Assembly: GCA_023421675.1 (NCBI GenBank) | Contig: JAEZTC010000001.1 | Coordinates: forward strand, 31,388 to 95,387 | Length of the DNA stretch: 64,000 nt | Direction of reading: 5' to 3' | DNA from: Bacillota bacterium | Lineage (GTDB): Bacteria; Bacillota; Clostridia; Acetivibrionales; JANLFN01 | Shown here: piece by piece, positions 1,686 to 31,453 of the stretch | Position numbering within the stretch: position 1 is the first letter of the stretch | How the letters are laid out: every line of letters begins with the position of its first letter | The notes under the pieces: generated by a model | The model's database searches: none | What the model was told of the DNA's origin: nothing | What the model saw: the letters and a program-made list of their open reading frames with translations, nothing else | Position numbers and translations under genes: made by a program

Positions 1686-4094
1686 ATGCCTGAATCCTAT
1701 GAAATCAAGTACAATATGCTGAGTAATGAATGCAAACCCAGCTTTTTTAATTTTAAAGACACTTCACAAATAGAATCACTGGAAGGAATAATAGGCCAGG
1801 ATCGAGCTGTAAAGGCAATGCAGTTCGGACTTAATGTAAAGGTACGGGGATATAACATTTACATGTCAGGCATGTCAGGGACCGGCAAAACCAGTTATGC
1901 TCAAAAGTACATAAAGAAGATTGCAATAAAGAAAAAAGTTCCGTGTGACTGGTGCTATGTCTATAACTTTGATAAGCCCAACCAGCCCATGGCTGTAAAT
2001 CTGCCTTCCGGAACAGGCAAAGTCTTTCAGAAGGACATGGATGACTTTATAAAAATACTTAAGCTGGAGATTTCAAAGGTATTTGACAGTGATGATTATG
2101 AAAAGGAAAAAGCGGAGATTATAAGGGAATTCCAGGATAAGAAGGTTGAACTTGTTCAACAGCTGTCAGAGGATGCTGGAAAGCATGGCTTTAAAGTTAA
2201 AACTACCAGTGCAGGAATTTACTTTATGCCTGTAATAGAGGGAAAAACCCTCAGTGAGCAGGAATACAGCGACCTGGACGAGATGATAAAACACGAAATC
2301 AATGAGAAATCAAGCGCCGTTCAGATTGAAACCCTAGATATTATAAGGAATATAAAGAATATCGAGAAAGAAGCAGAGGAAAAGGTTGCCGTATGGGAAA
2401 ATAGGATTGCACTTTTTGCTGTCGGAATGCATATAAACGATCTTAAGGAAAAATATAGTGACTTTGAAAAAATAACTACATATTTAAGTCGAGTTCAGGA
2501 TGACATTCTTGAGAACTTGTCTGATTTCAGGGAAGAGGAACCGGTTGAGGAGCAGCAGTACATAATTCCTTTTGTAAAAAGCAGCGAATCACCGGCTGAA
2601 AAATATAAAGTTAACCTATTAGTAGATAACAGTACATTGGAAGGTGCACCGGTAATAGTGGATTTTAATCCTACATACTATAATTTACTCGGTAAGCTGG
2701 AATATGAGAACGAATTCGGCACCATGACAACAGATCTCACAATGATTAAGGGAGGCCTGTTGCATCAGGCTAATGGCGGGTATCTCATATTACAGGCAAA
2801 GGATGTTATAAATAATGTCCAATCATGGGAGGCTTTGAAGAGAGTACTCAAAACAAAGAAGATAAATATTGGAAATATGAAGGAGCAATCAGGACTTGTC
2901 GCCGTGTCAAGCCTTAAGCCTGAGCCTATTCCGGTTGAGGTCAAGGTAATACTTGTAGGCAGCGAAGGTCTTTATCAGGCGCTATATGAATATGATGAGG
3001 ATTTCAGCAAGCTGTTCAAAATTAAAGTGGATTTCGATGATGAAATGGAACGAGACCAGGATAATACAATGAAGCTTGCCCAGTTTATAAGCTCTTTCTG
3101 CCGCAGGGAGAACATGCCCCATTTTGATAGATCGGGTGTTGCAAAGGTAGTGGAATATAGCTCACGACTTATTGAAAGCCAGAATAAGCTGAGCACCAGA
3201 TTTAATGATATTGCAGATATACTGTGTGAATCGTGTGCCTGGGCGGAAATTGATGAAAAGAAGCTAGTTACCGCTGAGCATGTAAAAAAGGCGATAGAAG
3301 AAAAGAATCAAAGATCAAATAAATATGATAAAAAGTTGCTTGAAATGCTTGAAGAAGGTACAATAATGATAGATACTCAGGGAGAGGTTGTAGGCCAGAT
3401 AAATGGCTTATCCATCCTTGATATGGGTGACTATGTATTTGGAAAGCCTTCAAGAATTACGGCAACCACATACATGGGTGAAAGAGGAATAGTAAACATC
3501 GAACGTGAAATTGAAATGAGCGGCACGTCACATACTAAAGGCGTACTGATACTTAGTGGTTATATCGGTCAGAAATATGCGCAGGAGATACCGCTTTCAT
3601 TATCTGCAAGCCTTTGCTTTGAACAGCTTTACAGCGGTATTGACGGAGATAGTGCCTCAAGCGCGGAGCTTTATGCGATCCTTTCAAGCCTTGCAGATGC
3701 GCCTATTAAACAGGGTATTGCTGTGACAGGTTCAGTAAACCAAAGAGGAGAAATACAGCCTATTGGCGGAGCAACAAATAAGATTGAAGGATTTTTTGAA
3801 CTTTGTAAGCTTCGTGGATTGGATGGAAAGCAGGGAGTAATAATTCCCCATCAGAATATAAAAAACCTTATGCTTGGGGATGAGGTAATTGAAGCAGTAA
3901 AAAAGCATCAATTTCACATTTATGCTGTAAAGACAATTGATGAAGGCATTCAGATACTTACAGGGCTTAAATCTGGTGAAAAAGATCAAAATGGTAAGTA
4001 TCCAAAAGCGACAATAAATTATAAGGTTTATGAAAAATTGAAAAAATTTGCTCTCAGATCGGTTAGCTTTGGAAAAGAACACAACAACAAATAG
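1686..4094 (+). CDS. Lon-like ATP-dependent protease (COG1067/LonC-type AAA+ plus S16 protease domain)
   Basis: 802 aa. Walker A GMSGTGKTS. C-terminal Lon S16-like catalytic region DGDSASSAELYAILSSL...GSVNQRGEIQPIGG. RBS is AAGGGGG. Confidence 0.8.
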   Translation: MPESYEIKYNMLSNECKPSFFNFKDTSQIESLEGIIGQDRAVKAMQFGLNVKVRGYNIYMSGMSGTGKTSYAQKYIKKIAIKKKVPCDWCYVYNFDKPNQPMAVNLPSGTGKVFQKDMDDFIKILKLEISKVFDSDDYEKEKAEIIREFQDKKVELVQQLSEDAGKHGFKVKTTSAGIYFMPVIEGKTLSEQEYSDLDEMIKHEINEKSSAVQIETLDIIRNIKNIEKEAEEKVAVWENRIALFAVGMHINDLKEKYSDFEKITTYLSRVQDDILENLSDFREEEPVEEQQYIIPFVKSSESPAEKYKVNLLVDNSTLEGAPVIVDFNPTYYNLLGKLEYENEFGTMTTDLTMIKGGLLHQANGGYLILQAKDVINNVQSWEALKRVLKTKKINIGNMKEQSGLVAVSSLKPEPIPVEVKVILVGSEGLYQALYEYDEDFSKLFKIKVDFDDEMERDQDNTMKLAQFISSFCRRENMPHFDRSGVAKVVEYSSRLIESQNKLSTRFNDIADILCESCAWAEIDEKKLVTAEHVKKAIEEKNQRSNKYDKKLLEMLEEGTIMIDTQGEVVGQINGLSILDMGDYVFGKPSRITATTYMGERGIVNIEREIEMSGTSHTKGVLILSGYIGQKYAQEIPLSLSASLCFEQLYSGIDGDSASSAELYAILSSLADAPIKQGIAVTGSVNQRGEIQPIGGATNKIEGFFELCKLRGLDGKQGVIIPHQNIKNLMLGDEVIEAVKKHQFHIYAVKTIDEGIQILTGLKSGEKDQNGKYPKATINYKVYEKLKKFALRSVSFGKEHNNK

Positions 4095-17165: not shown

Positions 17166-17293
17166 TCTTTTTTTAGCTACTCTTATCCATTTTCCAATAG
17201 AAATTATATTAAATTAGGTTATAATATAAAGGGAGTTGACAGTTGACGAGAGGACAGTTGAAAGTTAACAGTTAACAAATAGTTATTCTTAAT

Positions 17294-21280: not shown

Positions 21281-21308
21281 TTGACACCGCATTTTAATAT
21301 GTTATACT
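21281..21308 (+). promoter_or_regulatory. sigma-A-type promoter for smpB
   Basis: TTGACA (21281-21286), 16-nt spacer, TG-extended -10 TGtTATACT (21300-21308). Lies about 90 nt upstream of the smpB ATG. Confidence 0.55.
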
Positions 21309-21395
21309 ATTATAGTAACCGAACAAATGTATTAAACAATGCCCTTTCACAAAGAAGGGTTATTTTTATCCCGGTAAAAGGACGAAGGTAGCGGA

Positions 21396-21860
21396 ATGTC
21401 AGGCGAAGGTATTAAAATAGTTGCTCAAAACAAAAAAGCTAGGCACGATTACTTTATTGAAGATACTCTTGAAGCAGGCATAGTGCTTTCAGGTACCGAG
21501 GTCAAGTCTATAAGACAGGGCAAGGTTAATTTGAAGGATAGCTATGCAATGATAGAAGACGGTGAAGTAATCTTAAGCGGTATGCACATAAGTCCTTATG
21601 AGCAGGGCAACATATTTAACAAGGATCCTTTGAGGGACCGCAAGCTGCTGCTTCATAAGTACGAGATAAACAAGCTTATCGGTTACACACAGCAGAAAGG
21701 CCTCACAATAGTTCCTCTACAGCTGTATTTTACACGAGGAAAGGTAAAACTGCAGCTTGGAATAGCTAAAGGTAAAAAGCTCTACGACAAACGCGACGAC
21801 ATAGCGGAAAGAGATGCGAAGCGCAATATAGACAGAATGATGAAGGAACAGAGTAGGTAA
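21396..21860 (+). CDS. smpB: SsrA-binding protein
   Basis: 154 aa. SmpB signature ([30 protein letters not shown]). Immediately upstream of tmRNA. Confidence 0.95.
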
Positions 21861-21890
21861 TTGAGAATTGAGAATGGAGAATTGAGAATT
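21859..21890. repeat. left 32-nt inverted repeat (tandem GAGAATT heptamers) flanking the four-helix-bundle gene
   Basis: AATTGAGAATTGAGAATGGAGAATTGAGAATT. Complementary at 29/32 positions to 22301-22332. Confidence 0.85.
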
Positions 21891-21937
21891 ATTTTAAATT
21901 CATTTTTAGTTCTAGATTATTTATAAAGGGATGCATA

Positions 21938-22297
21938 ATGAAGGATAATGTTATTGTTACTAAAACCTTCAGGTTTGCAGTAAAAGTTGTAGAATGCTAT
22001 AAGATGTTGTGTAATACAAGTAAGGAGTATGTATTGTCTAAACAACTTCTTAGTTCAGGTACCAGTATAGGGGCAAATGTGAGGGAAGCGGTACAGGCTC
22101 AAAGTAAAAAGGATTTTGTTTCAAAAATGTCTATCTCTCTTAAGGAAGCTTATGAGACTCAATATTGGATTGAGTTGCTGAAAGAGACAGAGTACATTGA
22201 TAACCAAATAGCAAGCGAATTAATTGATCAATTGGATGAGATTATAAGAATTCTTAGTTCTATTATCAAATCATCAAAGGATAATAAGCAGAAGTAG
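21938..22297 (+). CDS. four-helix-bundle protein (TIGR02436 / 23S rRNA intervening-sequence protein family)
   Basis: 119 aa. Family-typical sequence FRFAVKVVECYK...SKQLLSSGTSIGANVREAQ...SKKDFVSKMSISLKEAYETQYWIELL. RBS is AAAGGGA. Confidence 0.8.
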   Translation: MKDNVIVTKTFRFAVKVVECYKMLCNTSKEYVLSKQLLSSGTSIGANVREAVQAQSKKDFVSKMSISLKEAYETQYWIELLKETEYIDNQIASELIDQLDEIIRILSSIIKSSKDNKQK

Positions 22298-22300
22298 TTC

Positions 22301-22332
22301 TAATTCTCAATTCTCAATTGTCAATTTTCAAT
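22301..22332. repeat. right 32-nt inverted repeat (AATTCTC heptamers), partner of 21859-21890
   Basis: AATTCTCAATTCTCAATTGTCAATTTTCAATT. Starts 4 nt after the stop codon and ends 10 nt before the tmRNA 5' end. Confidence 0.85.
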
Positions 22333-22341
22333 TATATTTTT

Positions 22342-22732
22342 GGGGGCGTATTGGTTTCGACGGGATTGTTGAGACTTGGGTAGCGGGTAGAGGATTCTCG
22401 TTGGCCTCTTAAAAAACGAGAAACTAAAATTAAACGCTAAAAATAATAACAATTATTCATTAGCTTTAGCAGCTTAATACTGCTAACCGTCAGTCCAGGG
22501 TTCCTGCACCTTGGGTAGCTGGCGTCATTAAGTCAGGCCTTCGGCATAGGAAGGTTAAATGCTGGAACTTTTGCAGCGGTAGCCTTGAGCTGTAATCGTA
22601 TTTAAAGGATACTGAAAGTGTAATCCTGCCTGTGGGAGTGCACCGTAGGGAATGTAAAAATGCAGGATACACCCGTAGAAGCTCTTGTGGATATGGTTTC
22701 GGACAGGGGTTCGACACCCCTCGCCTCCACCA
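22342..22732 (+). ncRNA. ssrA: transfer-messenger RNA (tmRNA, 10Sa RNA)
   Basis: 5' GGGGGCGTATTGGTTTCGACGGG and 3' GGACAGGGGTTCGACACCCCTCGCCTCCACCA. Internal tag reading frame GCT AAA AAT AAT AAC AAT TAT TCA TTA GCT TTA GCA GCT TAA gives AKNNNNYSLALAA. Follows smpB. Confidence 0.95.
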
Positions 22733-22741
22733 AAATGAAAA

Positions 22742-22770
22742 GTATCACCATCAGGTGATGCTTTTTTATT
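22742..22770 (+). terminator. rho-independent terminator of ssrA
   Basis: GTATCACC-atca-GGTGATGC stem followed by TTTTTTATTTT. Confidence 0.8.
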
Positions 22771-22806
22771 TTGCATAGAATCGGAAGGGGTGTCGAACCT
22801 AGCGGC
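22763..22806. repeat. left boundary direct repeat (DR-L) of the ssrA-adjacent island
   Basis: TTTTTATTTTGCATAGAATCGGAAGGGGTGTCGAACCTAGCGGC. The 3' 28-mer is identical to 34807-34834. Begins in the terminator T-tract. Confidence 0.8.
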
Positions 22807-22813
22807 TTGGAGC

Positions 22814-22929
22814 GTAAAGGAAACGTGCTGAATGCACGTTTTTAGCGACAAGTGAGGAGACAGGACCCGCCAGCGGGTGGCGACTCGGAAGTATGCGAGC
22901 ACAGCGAAGCAGACGGTCGACTCTGAGCC
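22814..22929 (+). repeat. ~115-nt conserved element, copy 1 (possible structured RNA)
   Basis: About 93% identical to 23576-23690. Internal hairpins ACGTGC-tgaat-GCACGT and ACCCGC-ca-GCGGGT. Copy 1 is followed by an AAGCCGCT/AGCGGCTT terminator-like hairpin. Confidence 0.6.
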
Positions 22930-23078
22930 TGAGCCAAATAAAGCCGCTGATGAAGCGGCTTTTGCCATAATGGTTAATATAAGCCTGATTAATGAAAGTA
23001 AGTTTCGTGCAATATGGATTTGTGGTAGTTACTTATTTAGTGGATATAGTTTAGTCAAGGGAATCCTATTTCTTGATA

Positions 23079-23225
23079 TTAATCATCTTCGCCGTAACCA
23101 TATTGAGTATTCTTATATCCGCAATACTTACATCTAACATAAGCATATTCATTATCACCATCTTCCCAGGGAAGGGTCAATTCCCCGCCAGACAATGATT
23201 GTCCACAATTTTCACATGTATCCAT
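23079..23225 (-). CDS. 48-aa zinc-ribbon protein (not in the ORF track, below 60 aa)
   Basis: Minus strand reads MDTCENCGQSLSGGELTLPWEDGDNEYAYVRCKYCGYKNTQYGYGEDD*. Two CxxC pairs. Strong RBS AAGGAGGTG 6 nt upstream. Confidence 0.55.
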   Translation of the reverse strand: MDTCENCGQSLSGGELTLPWEDGDNEYAYVRCKYCGYKNTQYGYGEDD

Positions 23226-23575
23226 TAGTGCACCTCCTTAGCTTATCCATTCTCAACAAAATCAATATTATATTAATGTTATGTTATGGAAACTCATAAG
23301 TCAAGTCGATCAACAAAATAGGCGCTGTCATCAGATATTGGAAATTTTCCTATCAACATTTGAACTATGTAGGATAACAAAGTAGTAATCATAAAAAAGT
23401 AATGCAAGGGAAGGGATGAGAAAGAGCCTTCGAGGGGTAATCGCTAAAAAAATTTGGGTAGACATTAGATAGACAATTCTACTTTAAAACTCCAAAATAG
23501 GACATGATATTGCATAATACTGGAAGGTAAAAGATGGGATACCAATTTCCTTGGGATACCTTGTTTTAAGGGATA

Positions 23576-23690
23576 GTAAGGGAAACGTGCTGAATGCACG
23601 TTTTCAGCGATAAGTGAGGAGCCAGGACCCGCCAGCGGGTGGCGACTCGGAAGTATGCGAGTGAAGCGAGCAGACGGTCGACTCTGAGCC
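23576..23690 (+). repeat. ~115-nt conserved element, copy 2
   Basis: Direct-orientation near-identical copy of 22814-22929. Lies about 340 nt upstream of the HD-GHKL gene. Confidence 0.6.
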
Positions 23691-24032
23691 TCTACCAAGC
23701 AAAACCTCGATAGAAGTATAAGTTGCATACTCCATGGCTTTTGTTATTTGTAATCGCATGATGGGTGTAGGGGACTTCAATCAAATTGGTAAATAAAAAT
23801 ATTATAATTAAAAACTTTTGATATTAGTATATTGAGAAAGTTACCTACCTTATTATGTCAGTAACCATGCTTTATGACATAAGGGTAACTATCGTATAAT
23901 ATTAAATACAGAGATTTTTTCGAAAAGATACAATATTCTTGAAAAACAGGGCGGAAGTTGATAAAAATTGTTATTATATGTATAATTATTGCTAATATTA
24001 CTTTTAACTTATGTGGGGGGAATTATAAAATA

Positions 24033-26876
24033 ATGGATTCCATAGAAATACCTAAACGATTTGAAAAAAAATTAGAGAGTGATCCTGATTATTGTGTTAT
24101 TGTTAAGGAAATAATTCGCAGGTTTTCACCTATTATTAAAGATAATAAATTAGAATTTTTTCCTGAGTACACTGATCATGGGTTCTTACATATAAATAAT
24201 ACTTTACAGCTTGCTGATAGGATAATTCCAGATGAAACATATAATAAATTAAATACTTTAGACATAAGCATGATTATATTATCTGTTTTTTTGCATGACT
24301 TAGGAATGCATATTACATATGAATTTTTTATTGAATTAATTCAAGGAAAGTCTAAAAATTGTATTGATACGAGGGTTGACAATAAAACATGGGATATTTT
24401 ATGGGATGAGTTTTTTGCAGAAGCTAAGCTTTGGAGCGCAAAAAAACGCCAGTCTTTATTTAAGGATGACTTTGAAATTAAGCAACCTCCTATTAAAAGG
24501 GGAGAAGCAACAGAGAATGATAAGAAGTTTATTGGAGAATTTTTGAGGAAATATCACTCAAGACTAGCATACGAAATATGCATTTTTGGATTTCTGCAAG
24601 TTGATGGATCTAGAATGGAGCTTTCTGACAATTTAGACAATAAGCAAAAAGTATTATTAGGACTTATTGCAAGGAGTCATGGCTTAAATTTGTGGGATGT
24701 TTTTCAATACATTGAGAATGAATTTGGAAGGGAACAAATTCGATCACCCAAAAATGTTCATGCAATTTATATTATGGTTGTTTTAAGAATATCAGACTAT
24801 TTTGATATGGATAAAAGTAGGGCTAATACGCCTATTCTGAAATTTAGAAAAATAAATAGTAGTATTTCGGAATTAGAGTGGGAAAAGCATAAGGCAGTTG
24901 ATTATATAGCAATGGAATTTCAAGATGATCCAGAATCAATTTTTGTGTATATTAATGAAATTGCGCAGAGTAAAGTATACTTAGGTATAAATGACTTGTT
25001 GAAAAACATGCAAAGTGAGCTAGATACATGTTGGGCAGTTTTGGGTAAAGTATATGGGGCATATGAGAATTTACAACTTTCTTTTAGGAGAATACATTCA
25101 AATTTGGACAATAAAGATGTGTTCTTAAAGAAAGTAAAATTTGTTCCGGAAAGAATTAAATTTGATTCCAATCCAGATATTTTAAAACTCTTAATACAAC
25201 CTTTATATGGGCATAACCCAGCATATGGAATAAGAGAACTTTTGCAAAATGCTATAGATGCTTGTGTAGAAAAGGAAAAGGTTTATTCTGAAAAGTATAC
25301 ACCTAACATCATAATAACTATTGATCAAGAGTGTTTAACTGTAGAAGATAATGGTATAGGGATGAATAAAGATATATTGATAAATTACTTCCTTGTAGCA
25401 GGAGCTTCATTTAGAAATAGTGATGTATGGAAAAAGACCTATTGTTTAAATGATAAATCTACTATACCAAGAAGTGGAAGATTTGGTGTGGGTGTTTTTG
25501 CTAGTTTTCTTATTGGAAATGAAATTTCAGTTGAAACTTATAGGATGGGTGAAGATATAGGGTATAAATTTGACGCTAATATTGATACAGATCAAATTGA
25601 AGTGATAAAAGTGATTCCTGATGGAAAGAAATCTGGTACCAAAATTAAGATTAAACTAGATAAAATAGTTCTGGAAGAATTGAAAAACCAATTTGAAAAC
25701 AGTACTGATGAAATAAATTGGAGAAATTGGTATTTTGGGGACAACCCAAAACTTATAATAAATGTGCCAGACGGATGGGTGAAGGGGAGGGACAATGATG
25801 AAATAAAGGTTAGTTTATACAATGATAAGCTTGAGTCTTATTGGAAATCAATAAAGCCAGAGGGATATCATAGAGTTGATTGGACGTATAAATCATATAA
25901 TATGCTTATTTGTAATGGGATAATTATTCGAAATGGGTATAGTGCATATAGATTCATGAGATACAGGTTTCCGGAGAGCTTTTTGCAACCTTTAGTTTCA
26001 GTTGTAGACAGTGATGCTAACTTACCTTTAAATCTTGATAGAAATGGCATAAGCAACAATAGGCTTCCTTTCGAAACAGATCTTGTAAAAGACATCTATA
26101 CCGATATTATAGCAAAACTAATAATGTCAAATGATATTACCGAACTAAATGAGGAAAAGTTAATAATAAAAGAAACAAATCTTTTACACCCAGCAATAAG
26201 TCCGAGAGATTATTCGTATCGTGTTTTCGATTCTTCTGATTATCTCTTAACAAAAAAAGGATTTAATTTGTGCCATTACTATAGCTTGGAAAAACTAGAC
26301 GTTAAGCTTATTAATCGAATGTGGGTAAAAAGTGATACTCAACAAATAGATGATAAAGAATTTATCTCTAAGATTGACCATTTGATTGTAACTAAAGGTA
26401 GAATTTCTTCTATACAACAATATAAACAATGCATAGATTTAAATTATGCAATTAATCTTGGGAAGGCATATGATTTATCAAACATTCGGGCCTATATTAA
26501 AAAGGTCGAATTTAATTATATATTTGAAGAAAACAAAAATAGAATGCGTGCTGGATTTGAAAATAATATTGTTATAGAAAGTGAAAGTAACAATTGGTAC
26601 TGTATAACCTATGGAGATGTACCTAGTCCAAAGCTTGATATTGAATATTTGGAAAGGAATAGTAATAATATTAATCTATTTGTAGAATATTATTATAAAC
26701 TTACAACACAAGAGAAACGTCTTCAAGAACAATATTATTATAGATATGATGAAACTACTTTGTTTGAAGAGTTATTGACAAAGTATATGGGGGAAGATAT
26801 TTATATACCATACGATATTGGTACCAGAATGATTAAATATGATAAGCTAGTAAAAGAGATAAATAATGAGGTATAA
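24033..26876 (+). CDS. HD-phosphohydrolase / GHKL (Hsp90-MORC-like HATPase) fusion protein, candidate defence protein
   Basis: N-terminal HD motifs (DHGFLHINN; FLHDLGMH). Central Bergerat ATPase motifs: N-box ELLQNAIDA, G1 VEDNGIGM, G2 GRFGVGVFASF. The reading frame opens at 23958 with an I-rich AT-junk extension. Strikingly AT-rich codon usage. Confidence 0.75.
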   Translation: MDSIEIPKRFEKKLESDPDYCVIVKEIIRRFSPIIKDNKLEFFPEYTDHGFLHINNTLQLADRIIPDETYNKLNTLDISMIILSVFLHDLGMHITYEFFIELIQGKSKNCIDTRVDNKTWDILWDEFFAEAKLWSAKKRQSLFKDDFEIKQPPIKRGEATENDKKFIGEFLRKYHSRLAYEICIFGFLQVDGSRMELSDNLDNKQKVLLGLIARSHGLNLWDVFQYIENEFGREQIRSPKNVHAIYIMVVLRISDYFDMDKSRANTPILKFRKINSSISELEWEKHKAVDYIAMEFQDDPESIFVYINEIAQSKVYLGINDLLKNMQSELDTCWAVLGKVYGAYENLQLSFRRIHSNLDNKDVFLKKVKFVPERIKFDSNPDILKLLIQPLYGHNPAYGIRELLQNAIDACVEKEKVYSEKYTPNIIITIDQECLTVEDNGIGMNKDILINYFLVAGASFRNSDVWKKTYCLNDKSTIPRSGRFGVGVFASFLIGNEISVETYRMGEDIGYKFDANIDTDQIEVIKVIPDGKKSGTKIKIKLDKIVLEELKNQFENSTDEINWRNWYFGDNPKLIINVPDGWVKGRDNDEIKVSLYNDKLESYWKSIKPEGYHRVDWTYKSYNMLICNGIIIRNGYSAYRFMRYRFPESFLQPLVSVVDSDANLPLNLDRNGISNNRLPFETDLVKDIYTDIIAKLIMSNDITELNEEKLIIKETNLLHPAISPRDYSYRVFDSSDYLLTKKGFNLCHYYSLEKLDVKLINRMWVKSDTQQIDDKEFISKIDHLIVTKGRISSIQQYKQCIDLNYAINLGKAYDLSNIRAYIKKVEFNYIFEENKNRMRAGFENNIVIESESNNWYCITYGDVPSPKLDIEYLERNSNNINLFVEYYYKLTTQEKRLQEQYYYRYDETTLFEELLTKYMGEDIYIPYDIGTRMIKYDKLVKEINNEV

Positions 26877-26895
26877 GGAAGGTATATTGCCCCAG

Positions 26896-27110
26896 GTTCC
26901 TCATTATTTTACAGCATCGGCAAGAACCCATTTATAGGGGATAACTTTCACTGCGATTTTGGGAAAAACATATATATTGGTGATAATTTTCACGCCGATT
27001 ATAACTGTACAATGCTGGACGTTTGGGAGATAGCCTGTGACCCACTGTATAGATGCCGACATCCGGCCCAATCAGGCAGTTGTTTCCAATACGAATTTCT
27101 GCAAAAGAGT
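26896..27110. pseudogene. scrambled hexapeptide-repeat acetyltransferase (Maa/LacA-like) remnant
   Basis: Plus strand 26896-27026 encodes NPFIGDNFHCDFGKNIYIGDNFHADYNCTMLDV. The next segment, EIRIGNNCLIGPDVGIYTVGH, is on the minus strand (27100-27038). Local inversion, no intact ORF. Confidence 0.55.
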
Positions 27111-27336
27111 TGCTTGCCTGGTAACAGGTGCATTTCCGTCTTGTATTGGCCGGAAGCAAACCATCAATTATATAAAACAAGCTTGTGAGTTAAAAGGTGC
27201 GAAGATTTGTGGAATAGGAAGTGTGGGATGGTGGAGTTTTAATCGCAGTAGGCAAATCTCGGAAGTAGTTAATCATTTGACAAATTGCTTTAAATAGTTT
27301 TAGGACATAAAATACAAGGGTAACTGTATTCCGCTA

Positions 27337-27366
27337 GGGTTGTGATGATAATCACAACCCTTTTTA
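27337..27366 (+). terminator. rho-independent terminator (plus-strand orientation)
   Basis: GGGTTGTGAT-gata-ATCACAACCC stem followed by TTTTTAATTT. Confidence 0.6.
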
Positions 27367-27384
27367 ATTTAATCTCTAACCTAA

Positions 27385-28365
27385 TCAGTGTCCGCCTGAT
27401 TGAAGGTTCAACTGCCTGCTAATCCGTTCCTTTACCTGCGATAGAAAATTATCTGGTCCCAAAACTTTTACTACTGGTCCAAAACTTAAAATACGAATCA
27501 GTAGTTCGGTTTCATCTGCGGGGTCAAAGTTGATGCGGCAAGTGTAAGTATCTCGGTCTTTATCATACTCTGTCTGCCGTTCAAAAGATGCAAATTGAAG
27601 CATACAACGTTCTAATGCGTTACGTTCTTTTGAAATTTCTAAAACCACAGGTTCATTGTGGAAAGGTTCTTTATAAAGTGCATCCAAATCAACAAAAATA
27701 TCAAATTGGTTTTCTGATGGCATAACAGATTTTATGCGCCCAAGATTTAATGTAATCCGTTCAAGTTTGTTATGATGACGGTTGAATGCAGCGCACATGA
27801 GCCTGAATTTATCGTCGCGCGCCGAATAGCATATTTTATACGGATGATATTGCCGCTTGGTACGGCCACCCTTACTACTGCCATATTCGATAATCAGGGG
27901 CTGATGTGCTTTGCAAGCACCGAGAATAGCTTTAAATCGGGCAATATACCCGTCATCGTTGTAATCATCACCGTCAAGATGCTTGTCATATATATGAAAG
28001 TCATTCTGTTCATATAGTGGTTCGATATTATTCAGCGATTCATCTAATACCGTTAGTTGGCTGTCATTTAAAAACAATTTTATACGCCGATCATTAAGAA
28101 GTGCTTTTAACCATGATTTTTCAAGAGTAGTTAAAGGCCTCTTTGTTTCACTGTTGAATTTTGTGAAATATTTTTTGTCCCTTTCCGCAAGTAAACTCCA
28201 TTCACTGGAAAAGAGTGAAGGCAGCAGATGAAAAGCTGTATCATAAAAGCCGTATCCGGAAACAAGTTGTTCAATCTCGGATTTAGATAAGCCGTTCTGG
28301 GCTTGCTCCAAAATTTTAGCCACAACAGTGAAATAGCATCCATAAATTTCGGAAAACAATTCCAT
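27385..28365 (-). CDS. WYL-domain protein (downstream gene of a tandem pair)
   Basis: WYL-like core PYKICYSARDDKFRLMCAAFNRHHNKLERITLNLGRIKSV. AGGAGGTG RBS 6 nt before ATG 28365. Start overlaps the upstream stop codon (TGATG). Confidence 0.7.
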   Translation of the reverse strand: MELFSEIYGCYFTVVAKILEQAQNGLSKSEIEQLVSGYGFYDTAFHLLPSLFSSEWSLLAERDKKYFTKFNSETKRPLTTLEKSWLKALLNDRRIKLFLNDSQLTVLDESLNNIEPLYEQNDFHIYDKHLDGDDYNDDGYIARFKAILGACKAHQPLIIEYGSSKGGRTKRQYHPYKICYSARDDKFRLMCAAFNRHHNKLERITLNLGRIKSVMPSENQFDIFVDLDALYKEPFHNEPVVLEISKERNALERCMLQFASFERQTEYDKDRDTYTCRINFDPADETELLIRILSFGPVVKVLGPDNFLSQVKERISRQLNLQSGGH

Positions 28366-31197: not shown

Positions 31198-31453
31198 AAA
31201 AGACCTTTCAAGTCTATTCACAAATGGTAGAAATCAAAAATGTCCGGCAAGAGATGGACTGGAAACCATATCATCTTTTGCAACGATTAGCCAGCCAGTG
31301 GTGAAAAGGATACCGTTTGTTTCAGGATTGTTCCATAACGTTCAAGTGATGAATGTACACCGGACAATGACGGAAAAACTTCAATTTTTACCCCGCAGGA
31401 AAAGCGTGGACATTTTTGATAGAAACCGAAATTAAAAGGAAAGAGGTAATAAA

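Follow-up and report, generated by a model that had tools for sequence, protein, structure and literature searches.

A four-helix-bundle gene within inverted heptamer arms between smpB and ssrA: a probable intervening sequence-type cassette in uncultured Clostridia

The genome of an uncultured member of the Bacillota (class Clostridia) carries, between smpB and the transfer-messenger RNA (tmRNA) gene ssrA, a small gene bracketed by inverted arrays of heptamers. The gene lies within a stretch of 64,000 nucleotides (nt), called the window here (assembly GCA_023421675.1, contig JAEZTC010000001.1, forward-strand positions 31,388 to 95,387). We consider it probable that gene and arms together form a selfish cassette of the intervening sequence (IVS) type, which lacks a promoter and a terminator of its own, sits between the smpB stop codon and the tmRNA leader, is carried on an smpB-ssrA co-transcript, and folds into a stem that would be a substrate of RNase III. 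The cassette has every testable feature of an S23p-type IVS except a location inside rRNA.

Intervening sequences in rRNA genes were first reported around 1990, and forms without an open reading frame (ORF) are known in Salmonella, Campylobacter and other bacteria. In the 23S IVS of Coxiella, which has variable tandem heptamers, experiments have shown RNase III to cut midway along a 28-bp stem and so excise the element, and the ORF is decaying and probably untranslated; the same study describes the nature of rRNA IVSs, their spread and the role of their conserved small protein as unclear (PMC4990558).

All sequences compared with the window are metagenomic or come from metagenome-assembled genomes (MAGs). 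One metagenome contig, ERZ27268835:k141_15369, is identical to the window, and the closest named relatives of the host are Pseudobacteroides and Ruminiclostridium, with SmpB identities of 79-81%.

Results

Organization of the smpB-ssrA locus

The genes smpB, a 119-aa ORF and the tmRNA gene follow one another in this order and orientation, with the following parts:

21281-21308, plus strand: promoter-like site, TTGACA-16-TG-TATACT, 11/12 (consensus match only)
21396-21860, plus strand: smpB (PF01668, E=2e-66)
21858-21860, plus strand: smpB stop codon TAA, which doubles as the first triplet of the left arm
21858-21891, plus strand: left arm, GAGAATT heptamers, 4.6 copies
21892-21937, plus strand: 5' untranslated stretch of the cassette (direct sequence reading)
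21938-22297, plus strand: 119-aa four-helix-bundle gene, PF05635/TIGR02436 ('S23p', the 23S rRNA IVS protein family)
22301-22334, plus strand: right arm, AATTCTC heptamers, 5.3 copies, starting 3 nt past the ORF stop codon
22335-22341, plus strand: short A/U-rich leader separating the stem from the mature tmRNA, with RNase P presumed to cut at 22341/22342
22342-22732, plus strand: tmRNA of standard form, no intron, tag AKNNNNYSLALAA (ARAGORN; Rfam RF00023, 184 bits)
22737-22766, plus strand: intrinsic-terminator-like hairpin after the tmRNA

The 119-aa ORF matches PF05635 (E=6.4e-28, 97.5 bits, cutoff 33.8) and TIGR02436 (E=2.4e-31, 108 bits, cutoff 24), and its product has the family motifs that are invariant in PF05635 homologs. 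The nearest solved structure is PDB 2RLD (E=1e-35), which was deposited as five chains. Profile matches and gene calls thereby bear out the initial annotation, made by a model from the letters and ORF translations, which had placed a four-helix-bundle gene of TIGR02436/PF05635 type between smpB and ssrA. A Shine-Dalgarno-like AGGGA (21927-21931), read directly from the sequence, lies 6 nt 5' of the cassette ATG, within the loop and outside the stem, so that the ribosome-binding site would outlast stem cleavage. A leader related to that of the window (ATTTTATAC..) is found in the filled alleles described below and in a cassette-free outgroup, L110.

At both gathering and permissive thresholds, the tmRNA was the only Rfam match in the cassette and its vicinity. 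No rRNA gene is present in the window, and the cassette does not lie within a 23S or 16S rRNA helix. PADLOC defence models gave no match.

Inverted heptamer arms and predicted stem

The arms at 21858-21891 and 22301-22334 form an inverted repeat of 34 nt that is complementary at 31/34 positions (91%). This confirms and slightly lengthens the 32-nt GAGAATT arms, complementary at 29/32 positions, that had been described at the outset. The right arm ends 7 nt before the tmRNA start if the 34-nt arm is taken and 9 nt before it if the 32-nt arm is taken (from its end at 22332 to 22342); the initial annotation has it ending 10 nt before the tmRNA 5' end. Tandem Repeats Finder assigns a period of 7 to both arms, with 4.6 and 5.3 copies and 92% and 90% matches, respectively. 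The best inverted-repeat score is 25, compared with 9.5 +/- 1.0 (maximum 13) in 60 dinucleotide shuffles, or about 16 standard deviations above, and the 14-mer GAGAATTGAGAATT, with up to two mismatches, occurs eight times against 1.5 expected, seven of the eight being within the arms. Chance as the origin of the arm complementarity is excluded. No further copies of the cassette were found in the window.

In the predicted RNA fold the arms are paired in both the minimum free energy (MFE) and the centroid structure, with 31/34 arm positions paired in the former, and the predicted free energy of the arm duplex is -37 kcal/mol. Local folding of eight cassettes places the arms in paired positions of the MFE structure in all eight.

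The window also contains a solo array at 17234-17277, of about six heptamers (GTTGACA GTTGACG AGAGGAC AGTTGAA AGTTAAC AGTTAAC), which lies just 5' of tsaD and has no inverted partner. Its first 26 nt are an almost exact complement of the right arm of allele C (L085; see below). As a candidate second site of cassette polymorphism this region gave a negative result, being 100% identical, with no polymorphism, in the strains with alleles A, B and C.

Allele polymorphism among near-identical strains

Contigs encoding an SmpB 96-100% identical to that of the window fall into five junction states:

State A: window and L001-3; ORF of 119 aa; arms GAGAATT
State B / B2: L084 and L104; ORF of 123 aa; arms TTGACAG / TGTACAA
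State C: L085; ORF 3'-truncated, the frame running into the tmRNA; arms GTTGACA.. / ..GTCAAC
State D: L106; ORF of 119 aa; arms GATTATA
State E: L088; empty site with a 4-nt spacer; no arms

Compared among relatives, as the initial annotation had suggested, the spacer holds four different cassettes and one empty site in near-identical strains, the empty-site strain encoding an SmpB 96% identical to that of the window. The ORFs of alleles A to D share only 64-72% nucleotide and 51-61% amino acid identity, and the cassettes at the junction are non-orthologous. Their surroundings are 87-99.7% identical overall (1 kb 5' of smpB, 87-99%; tmRNA, 98-99.7%), or 93-99.7% once pairs with the more distant B2 strain are excluded, and 181 nt of intergenic DNA 4 kb away are 100% identical across the A, B and C strains. 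In genus-level outgroups (SmpB 87-89% identical) the spacers are 27-45 nt long and free of cassettes. The smpB-ssrA junction is a hot spot of allele turnover, and the cassette is dispensable and polymorphic for its host.

Recombination mosaic, selection and decay

Between allele A and either B or C, smpB is identical for 405 nt, and the remaining 60 nt contain 21 differences (35% divergent), this end of the gene being a mosaic block that moves together with the cassette allele. Because the divergent block starts inside smpB, and thus includes a foreign smpB tail, allele A was acquired by homologous recombination, from a donor in which a cassette was already present at the smpB-ssrA junction. 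De novo insertion was rejected as the source of allele A, since the divergent block begins within smpB, and no target-site duplication was found at the cassette junctions. The one turnover that can be traced, that of allele A, is homologous replacement, not demonstrated transposition. With this refinement, the earlier proposal of an IVS-like or mobile cassette in the smpB-ssrA spacer is supported. Alleles B and C agree through the smpB tail and for 13 nt into the left arm, after which they diverge, a divergence point that suggests exchange through the heptamer arrays themselves.

Comparison of the allele B ORF between the B and B2 strains gives a synonymous divergence (dS) of 0.39, a nonsynonymous divergence (dN) of 0.010 and a dN/dS of 0.026, beside a dS of 0.44 and a dN/dS of 0.041 for the adjacent smpB. 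From these values it follows that allele B has had a long history of vertical descent and that its product is functional. The cassette protein is under purifying selection in at least one allele (B), where it is as constrained as SmpB. Elsewhere the ORF has decayed and the arms have been kept: it is truncated in L085, interrupted by an in-frame stop and a frameshift in L026, and affected by an in-frame stop and an internal deletion in L102.

Transcription unit

The sole strong plus-strand promoter-like match before the tmRNA is the one at 21281-21308, upstream of smpB, which is likely the start of an smpB-cassette-ssrA transcript. No terminator-like site was found between smpB and the tmRNA, and the hairpin at 22737-22766 would close the transcription unit. 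In L088, the empty-site strain, 4 nt separate the smpB stop codon from the tmRNA start, a distance from which it follows that transcription of ssrA in this clade has to pass through smpB. The cassette is presumably co-transcribed with smpB and ssrA.

A tmRNA promoter within the cassette was considered and rejected: only weak 9/12 matches are present, and the best placed of them (22311-22338) would start transcription inside the mature tmRNA. A hairpin at 21341-21360, after the promoter-like site and ahead of smpB (start at 21396), has a T-run and resembles a terminator; it could be a leader or an attenuator.

The same junction in other lineages of Clostridia

Searches with SmpB retrieved 80 species-representative genomes. 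A tmRNA lies downstream of smpB in about 50 of them, and four of these carry a heptamer-armed element between smpB and ssrA. A metagenome contig adds a fifth case:

L026: Ruminococcus MAG; pseudogene at the smpB-ssrA junction
L034: Eubacteriaceae; intact PF05635 gene of another subfamily (E=6.5e-38)
L038: arms without an ORF at the smpB-ssrA junction
L078: arms without an ORF at the smpB-ssrA junction
L102: metagenome contig; pseudogene, with the right arm ending 10 nt before the tmRNA

The SmpB proteins of these hosts from other lineages are only 60-68% identical to that of the window. Period-7 arrays number six in 5.6 kb of smpB-ssrA spacers and nine in the remaining 426 kb of the loci, a density about 50 times higher per base. 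Given these low counts and the general abundance of arrays in the carrier genomes, the association of heptamer arrays with this junction is best regarded as recurrent and probably enriched, but not proven.

In L026 a third heptamer array, at 2855-2882 and 5' of smpB, is a closer complement of the right arm (3865-3897) than the actual left arm is, such that the right arm could alternatively pair across the whole of smpB and the cassette.

The same design in other contexts

Among homologs from metagenomes and protein look-ups, nearly every locus has an ORF enclosed by an inverted pair of heptamer arrays. Overall, such arrays bracket the ORF at about 30 of 37 independent PF05635 loci, with a heptamer unit that is common to both arms of a cassette and different between cassettes. 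One such cassette, with arms and ORF, lies inside a 23S rRNA gene as a classic IVS (L093). The membership of the protein in a family typical of 23S IVSs, which the initial annotation had pointed out, is matched by a cassette of the same design within 23S rRNA, and tandem heptamers occur in the Coxiella IVS as well (PMC4990558). Other homologs are embedded in operons (fabG-fabF, a polysaccharide operon and hsdS-hsdR), and homologous cassettes usually have the same orientation as the operon and start on the stop codon of the preceding gene or directly behind it. On viral contigs, heptamer arms are present at 13 of 18 loci. The metagenome homolog most similar to the cassette of the window, L089, is homologous to it exactly from outer arm end to outer arm end, with unrelated flanks; arms and ORF therefore constitute one unit.

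A search of a plasmid collection with the cassette DNA returned one distant match, a Nostoc homolog. It is a four-helix-bundle gene with GTAAAAA-type heptamers, located between cas2 and cas1 on a plasmid of Nostoc sp. TCL26-01 (NZ_CP040299.1; L134, 1290-1830).

In the polysaccharide operon (L115, 2501-3400), a small pair of DUF4160 and DUF2442 genes precedes the four-helix-bundle gene, and the downstream heptamer array has been turned into N-terminal codons of the next gene, of the UDP-glucose dehydrogenase family.

Other variable and repeated elements around ssrA

In several close relatives of the window, the tmRNA T-loop is interrupted by an insertion about 300 nt long (L088, at 3345-3645, L085, L104 and L111-L114). 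In L088 the insertion gives a sub-threshold match to a group I intron (RF00028, 23.9 bits, E=0.001) and is followed by the 3' exon CCCCTCGCCTCCACCA. It is absent from the window, L084 and L106, and the presence of this putative intron is independent of the cassette allele. Within the putative intron of L088 lies a heptamer array (CAACTGTACATTGTACATTGTCAATTATCAACTG, 3526-3559) that resembles the arms of allele B.

The genes 3' of the tmRNA (about 22770-28300 in the window) also vary among near-identical strains. The window encodes an HD-CE/HATPase protein there, L002 and L130 an RCC1-repeat protein and a ThsA-Macro protein, and L132 a MerR regulator, and in L106 a large serine recombinase abuts the tmRNA 3' end. 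Such strain-variable genes fit the known role of tmRNA as an island integration site. Just 3' of the tmRNA terminator, the window has a direct repeat of about 137 nt (22809-22945 and 23571-23706), with copies 84-91% identical and 762 nt apart. The repeat is GC-richer than its surroundings and structured-looking, has no Rfam match, and flanks a minus-strand ORF for a 48-aa zinc-ribbon-like protein.

Discussion

Proposed life cycle of the cassette

We propose that the cassette is transcribed by read-through within the smpB-ssrA co-transcript, and that in this RNA its arms would pair as a duplex of about 32-34 bp that brings the smpB 3' end close to the pre-tmRNA 5' end. By analogy with 23S rRNA IVSs, RNase III would cut the arm duplex and release the mRNA of the small protein with its ribosome-binding site intact in the loop. 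Cleavage would leave behind an smpB mRNA and a short-leader pre-tmRNA, from which RNase P would make the mature tmRNA 5' end as usual. At the junction, the cassette would persist and spread largely by way of the conserved smpB and ssrA flanks, whole alleles being exchanged by homologous recombination, and over time its ORF could decay to leave an ORF-less stem. An effect of the stem on tmRNA processing, which the initial annotation had raised, appears possible but would not be required; the stem may be more relevant to the expression of the cassette itself or to the stability of the smpB mRNA 3' end.

Several considerations weigh against this proposal. Its steps are inferred: transcription of the cassette together with smpB and ssrA, folding of the stem in the cell, cutting by RNase III, translation of the ORF and any change in the amounts of smpB or tmRNA products. 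The stem is unnecessary for tmRNA maturation, because RNase P alone would free the tmRNA from any upstream sequence. Arm mismatches in 19 cassettes (602 positions) carry no RNA-strand signature, with seven G-U on the sense strand against eight A-C and 54 of other kinds, and without an excess of G-U over A-C the complementarity could be maintained at the DNA level. The Nostoc homolog is antisense to cas2 and cas1, and read-through expression is therefore not universal. In a database of 5.8 billion proteins the closest match to the allele A protein beyond itself is 66% identical, and recent transposition is unsupported because no near-identical second copy was present. Finally, strong purifying selection, as on allele B, poorly suits a purely parasitic ORF.

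Alternative explanations

The arms might instead act at the DNA level, as recombination or hairpin sites for an enzyme encoded elsewhere (compare integron attC and REP/IS200-type sites), with the RNA stem being incidental. The lack of a G-U excess would fit such a role, the arm mismatches being mostly transversion-type unit variants, as would the solo arrays (17234-17277 in the window and the third array 5' of smpB in L026), the antisense Nostoc homolog, and the divergence of alleles B and C after 13 nt of the left arm, which suggests breakpoints within the arrays. However, the cassettes have no linked integrase, transposase or recombinase, target-site duplications are lacking, and the allele A breakpoint, 55-60 nt inside smpB, is that of ordinary homologous recombination. 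Most cassettes are, moreover, co-oriented with the host operon and placed straight after the upstream stop codon, which fits a lifestyle at the transcript level, and experiments on 23S IVSs have established that RNase III cuts stems of this kind (PMC4990558). On balance we regard an action of the arms on DNA as rather unlikely. We attach far less credence to the idea that the protein is a trans-translation accessory recruited by the host, which would act on SmpB, tmRNA or stalled ribosomes and be placed here for co-regulation. The recurrence of the smpB-ssrA position in at least six lineages of Clostridia, the strong purifying selection on allele B and the relationship of the family to nucleic-acid-binding Avd proteins could be read in this way. 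Yet the cassette is missing from most relatives, including the strain with a 96% identical SmpB and both genus-level outgroups, the alleles at the junction are non-orthologous, the ORF is decayed or missing in five cases (L085, L026, L102, L038 and L078), and such cassettes occur in unrelated operons and inside 23S rRNA.

Heptamer arrays could also be a general genome-wide class of repeats that flank the gene by accident, in which case there would be no cassette unit. Solo arrays in the window (17234-17277), in the tmRNA intron of L088 and elsewhere in array-rich genomes are compatible with this, and heptamers of the cyanobacterial short tandemly repeated repetitive (STRR) class are mentioned inside stable RNA genes (PMC2858038). 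An accidental association is nevertheless very improbable when an inverted pair precisely brackets the ORF at about 30 of 37 independent loci, when homology between the window and L089 begins and ends at the outer arm ends, and when each cassette has one heptamer type for both arms that differs from those of other cassettes. Least credible of all is an origin of the gene from a diversity-generating retroelement (DGR), of which it would be the left-over Avd accessory gene. Weak matches to bAvd (18.7 bits) and NF033474 (18.1 bits) point in this direction but fall far under the respective cutoffs of 40 and 80, and neither a reverse transcriptase nor a template or variable repeat lies within 6 kb, nor is there a PADLOC match.

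Relationship to known systems

Under the preferred reading, that of an IVS-type cassette, the closest counterparts are the 23S IVSs with an S23p ORF of Leptospira and Coxiella burnetii, which encode proteins of the same PF05635/TIGR02436 family (PMC4990558). They likewise carry the ORF in the loop of a long terminal-repeat stem (28 bp in Coxiella, 32-34 bp here), have tandem heptamers of variable copy number in the stem region, and are sporadic, strain-variable and sense-oriented within a stable-RNA transcription unit. Unlike these IVSs, which sit in an rRNA helix, the cassette described here occupies the spacer 5' of the tmRNA, a location at which excision neither fragments a functional RNA nor is needed for maturation of a host RNA. 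The two also differ in that the Coxiella ORF is decaying, whereas here a plausible ribosome-binding site lies in the loop and at least allele B is under strong purifying selection. The short stem-only form of ORF-less rRNA IVSs (PMC4990558) is resembled by L038 and L078, and in part by L085, L026 and L102, at a different location and with a heptamer construction that is explicit in the tmRNA-adjacent elements.

Neisseria Correia elements and enterobacterial repetitive intergenic consensus (ERIC) sequences have terminal inverted repeats and are cleaved by RNase III when co-transcribed. Like the cassette, they place a long stem in operon transcripts, where it affects the processing or stability of the flanking mRNA; unlike the cassette, they are non-coding, occur in many near-identical copies and have target-site duplications. 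STRR heptamers of cyanobacteria occur inside RNase P RNA genes. They resemble the arms in being tandem 7-nt units that can lie in or beside stable RNA genes (PMC2858038), and the Nostoc gene is heptamer-flanked too. Accounts of STRRs, however, speak of scattered tandem arrays instead of inverted pairs around a gene, and their unit sequences and phylum are different. Integron cassettes have a promoterless ORF with a recombination site, beside an integron integrase and attI; the ORF here is likewise promoterless, and co-oriented with its neighbours, but no tyrosine integrase lies near any of the present loci. The bAvd accessory protein of DGRs has a homologous fold, a four-helix bundle that is pentameric in solved structures, and the relationship between PF05635 and Avd has been noted (PMC10053308); the cassette has no reverse transcriptase and no pair of template and variable repeats (TR/VR), and scores below the family cutoffs. 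The cassette is thus not a DGR Avd gene, an integron cassette or a miniature inverted-repeat transposable element.

Other selfish elements that use ssrA are group I introns in the tmRNA T-loop, the putative case of which in the present set is found in L085, L088, L104 and L111-L114, and genomic islands at the 3' end (PMC11915505). These rely on self-splicing or site-specific integration and are located inside or 3' of the gene, in contrast to the cassette, which lies 5' of it. A tmRNA database paper of 2025 lists introns, permuted genes and islands, and nothing upstream of the gene. Our literature search, which left subscription journals mostly uncovered and could have missed an earlier account, returned no description of PF05635 cassettes beside tmRNA or of heptamer arms as a general feature, the sole precedent for such arms being a remark in the Coxiella IVS paper.

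More tentatively, and with less confidence than in the cassette itself, we speculate that PF05635 genes within inverted heptamer arrays form one very widespread and undescribed class of operon-embedded cassettes that spans Bacillota, viral contigs and, with the Nostoc plasmid, at least one cyanobacterium, and of which 23S IVSs would be only the best-known special case. Members of such a class might excise themselves at the RNA level by means of their stems and favour junctions next to conserved, strongly transcribed stable-RNA genes, and an Avd-like pentameric protein might act on its own heptamer stem for maintenance, spread or benefit of the host.

Implications

As a single-copy site with four intact or decaying alleles and an empty site in near-identical strains, the smpB-ssrA junction offers a cleaner system for the study of such elements than multi-copy rRNA operons, and the neighbouring RNA, tmRNA, has an easily assayed maturation. 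The comparisons show that the design of an ORF within a heptamer stem is general and not tied to rRNA, that the protein can be under strong purifying selection, and that alleles move by homologous recombination through conserved flanks. For the Clostridia, the smpB-ssrA spacer can hold an extra gene and a long stem, which may affect smpB mRNA stability and pre-tmRNA processing, and the ssrA locus gathers three kinds of selfish element: the cassette on its 5' side, the T-loop intron and the islands at its 3' end.

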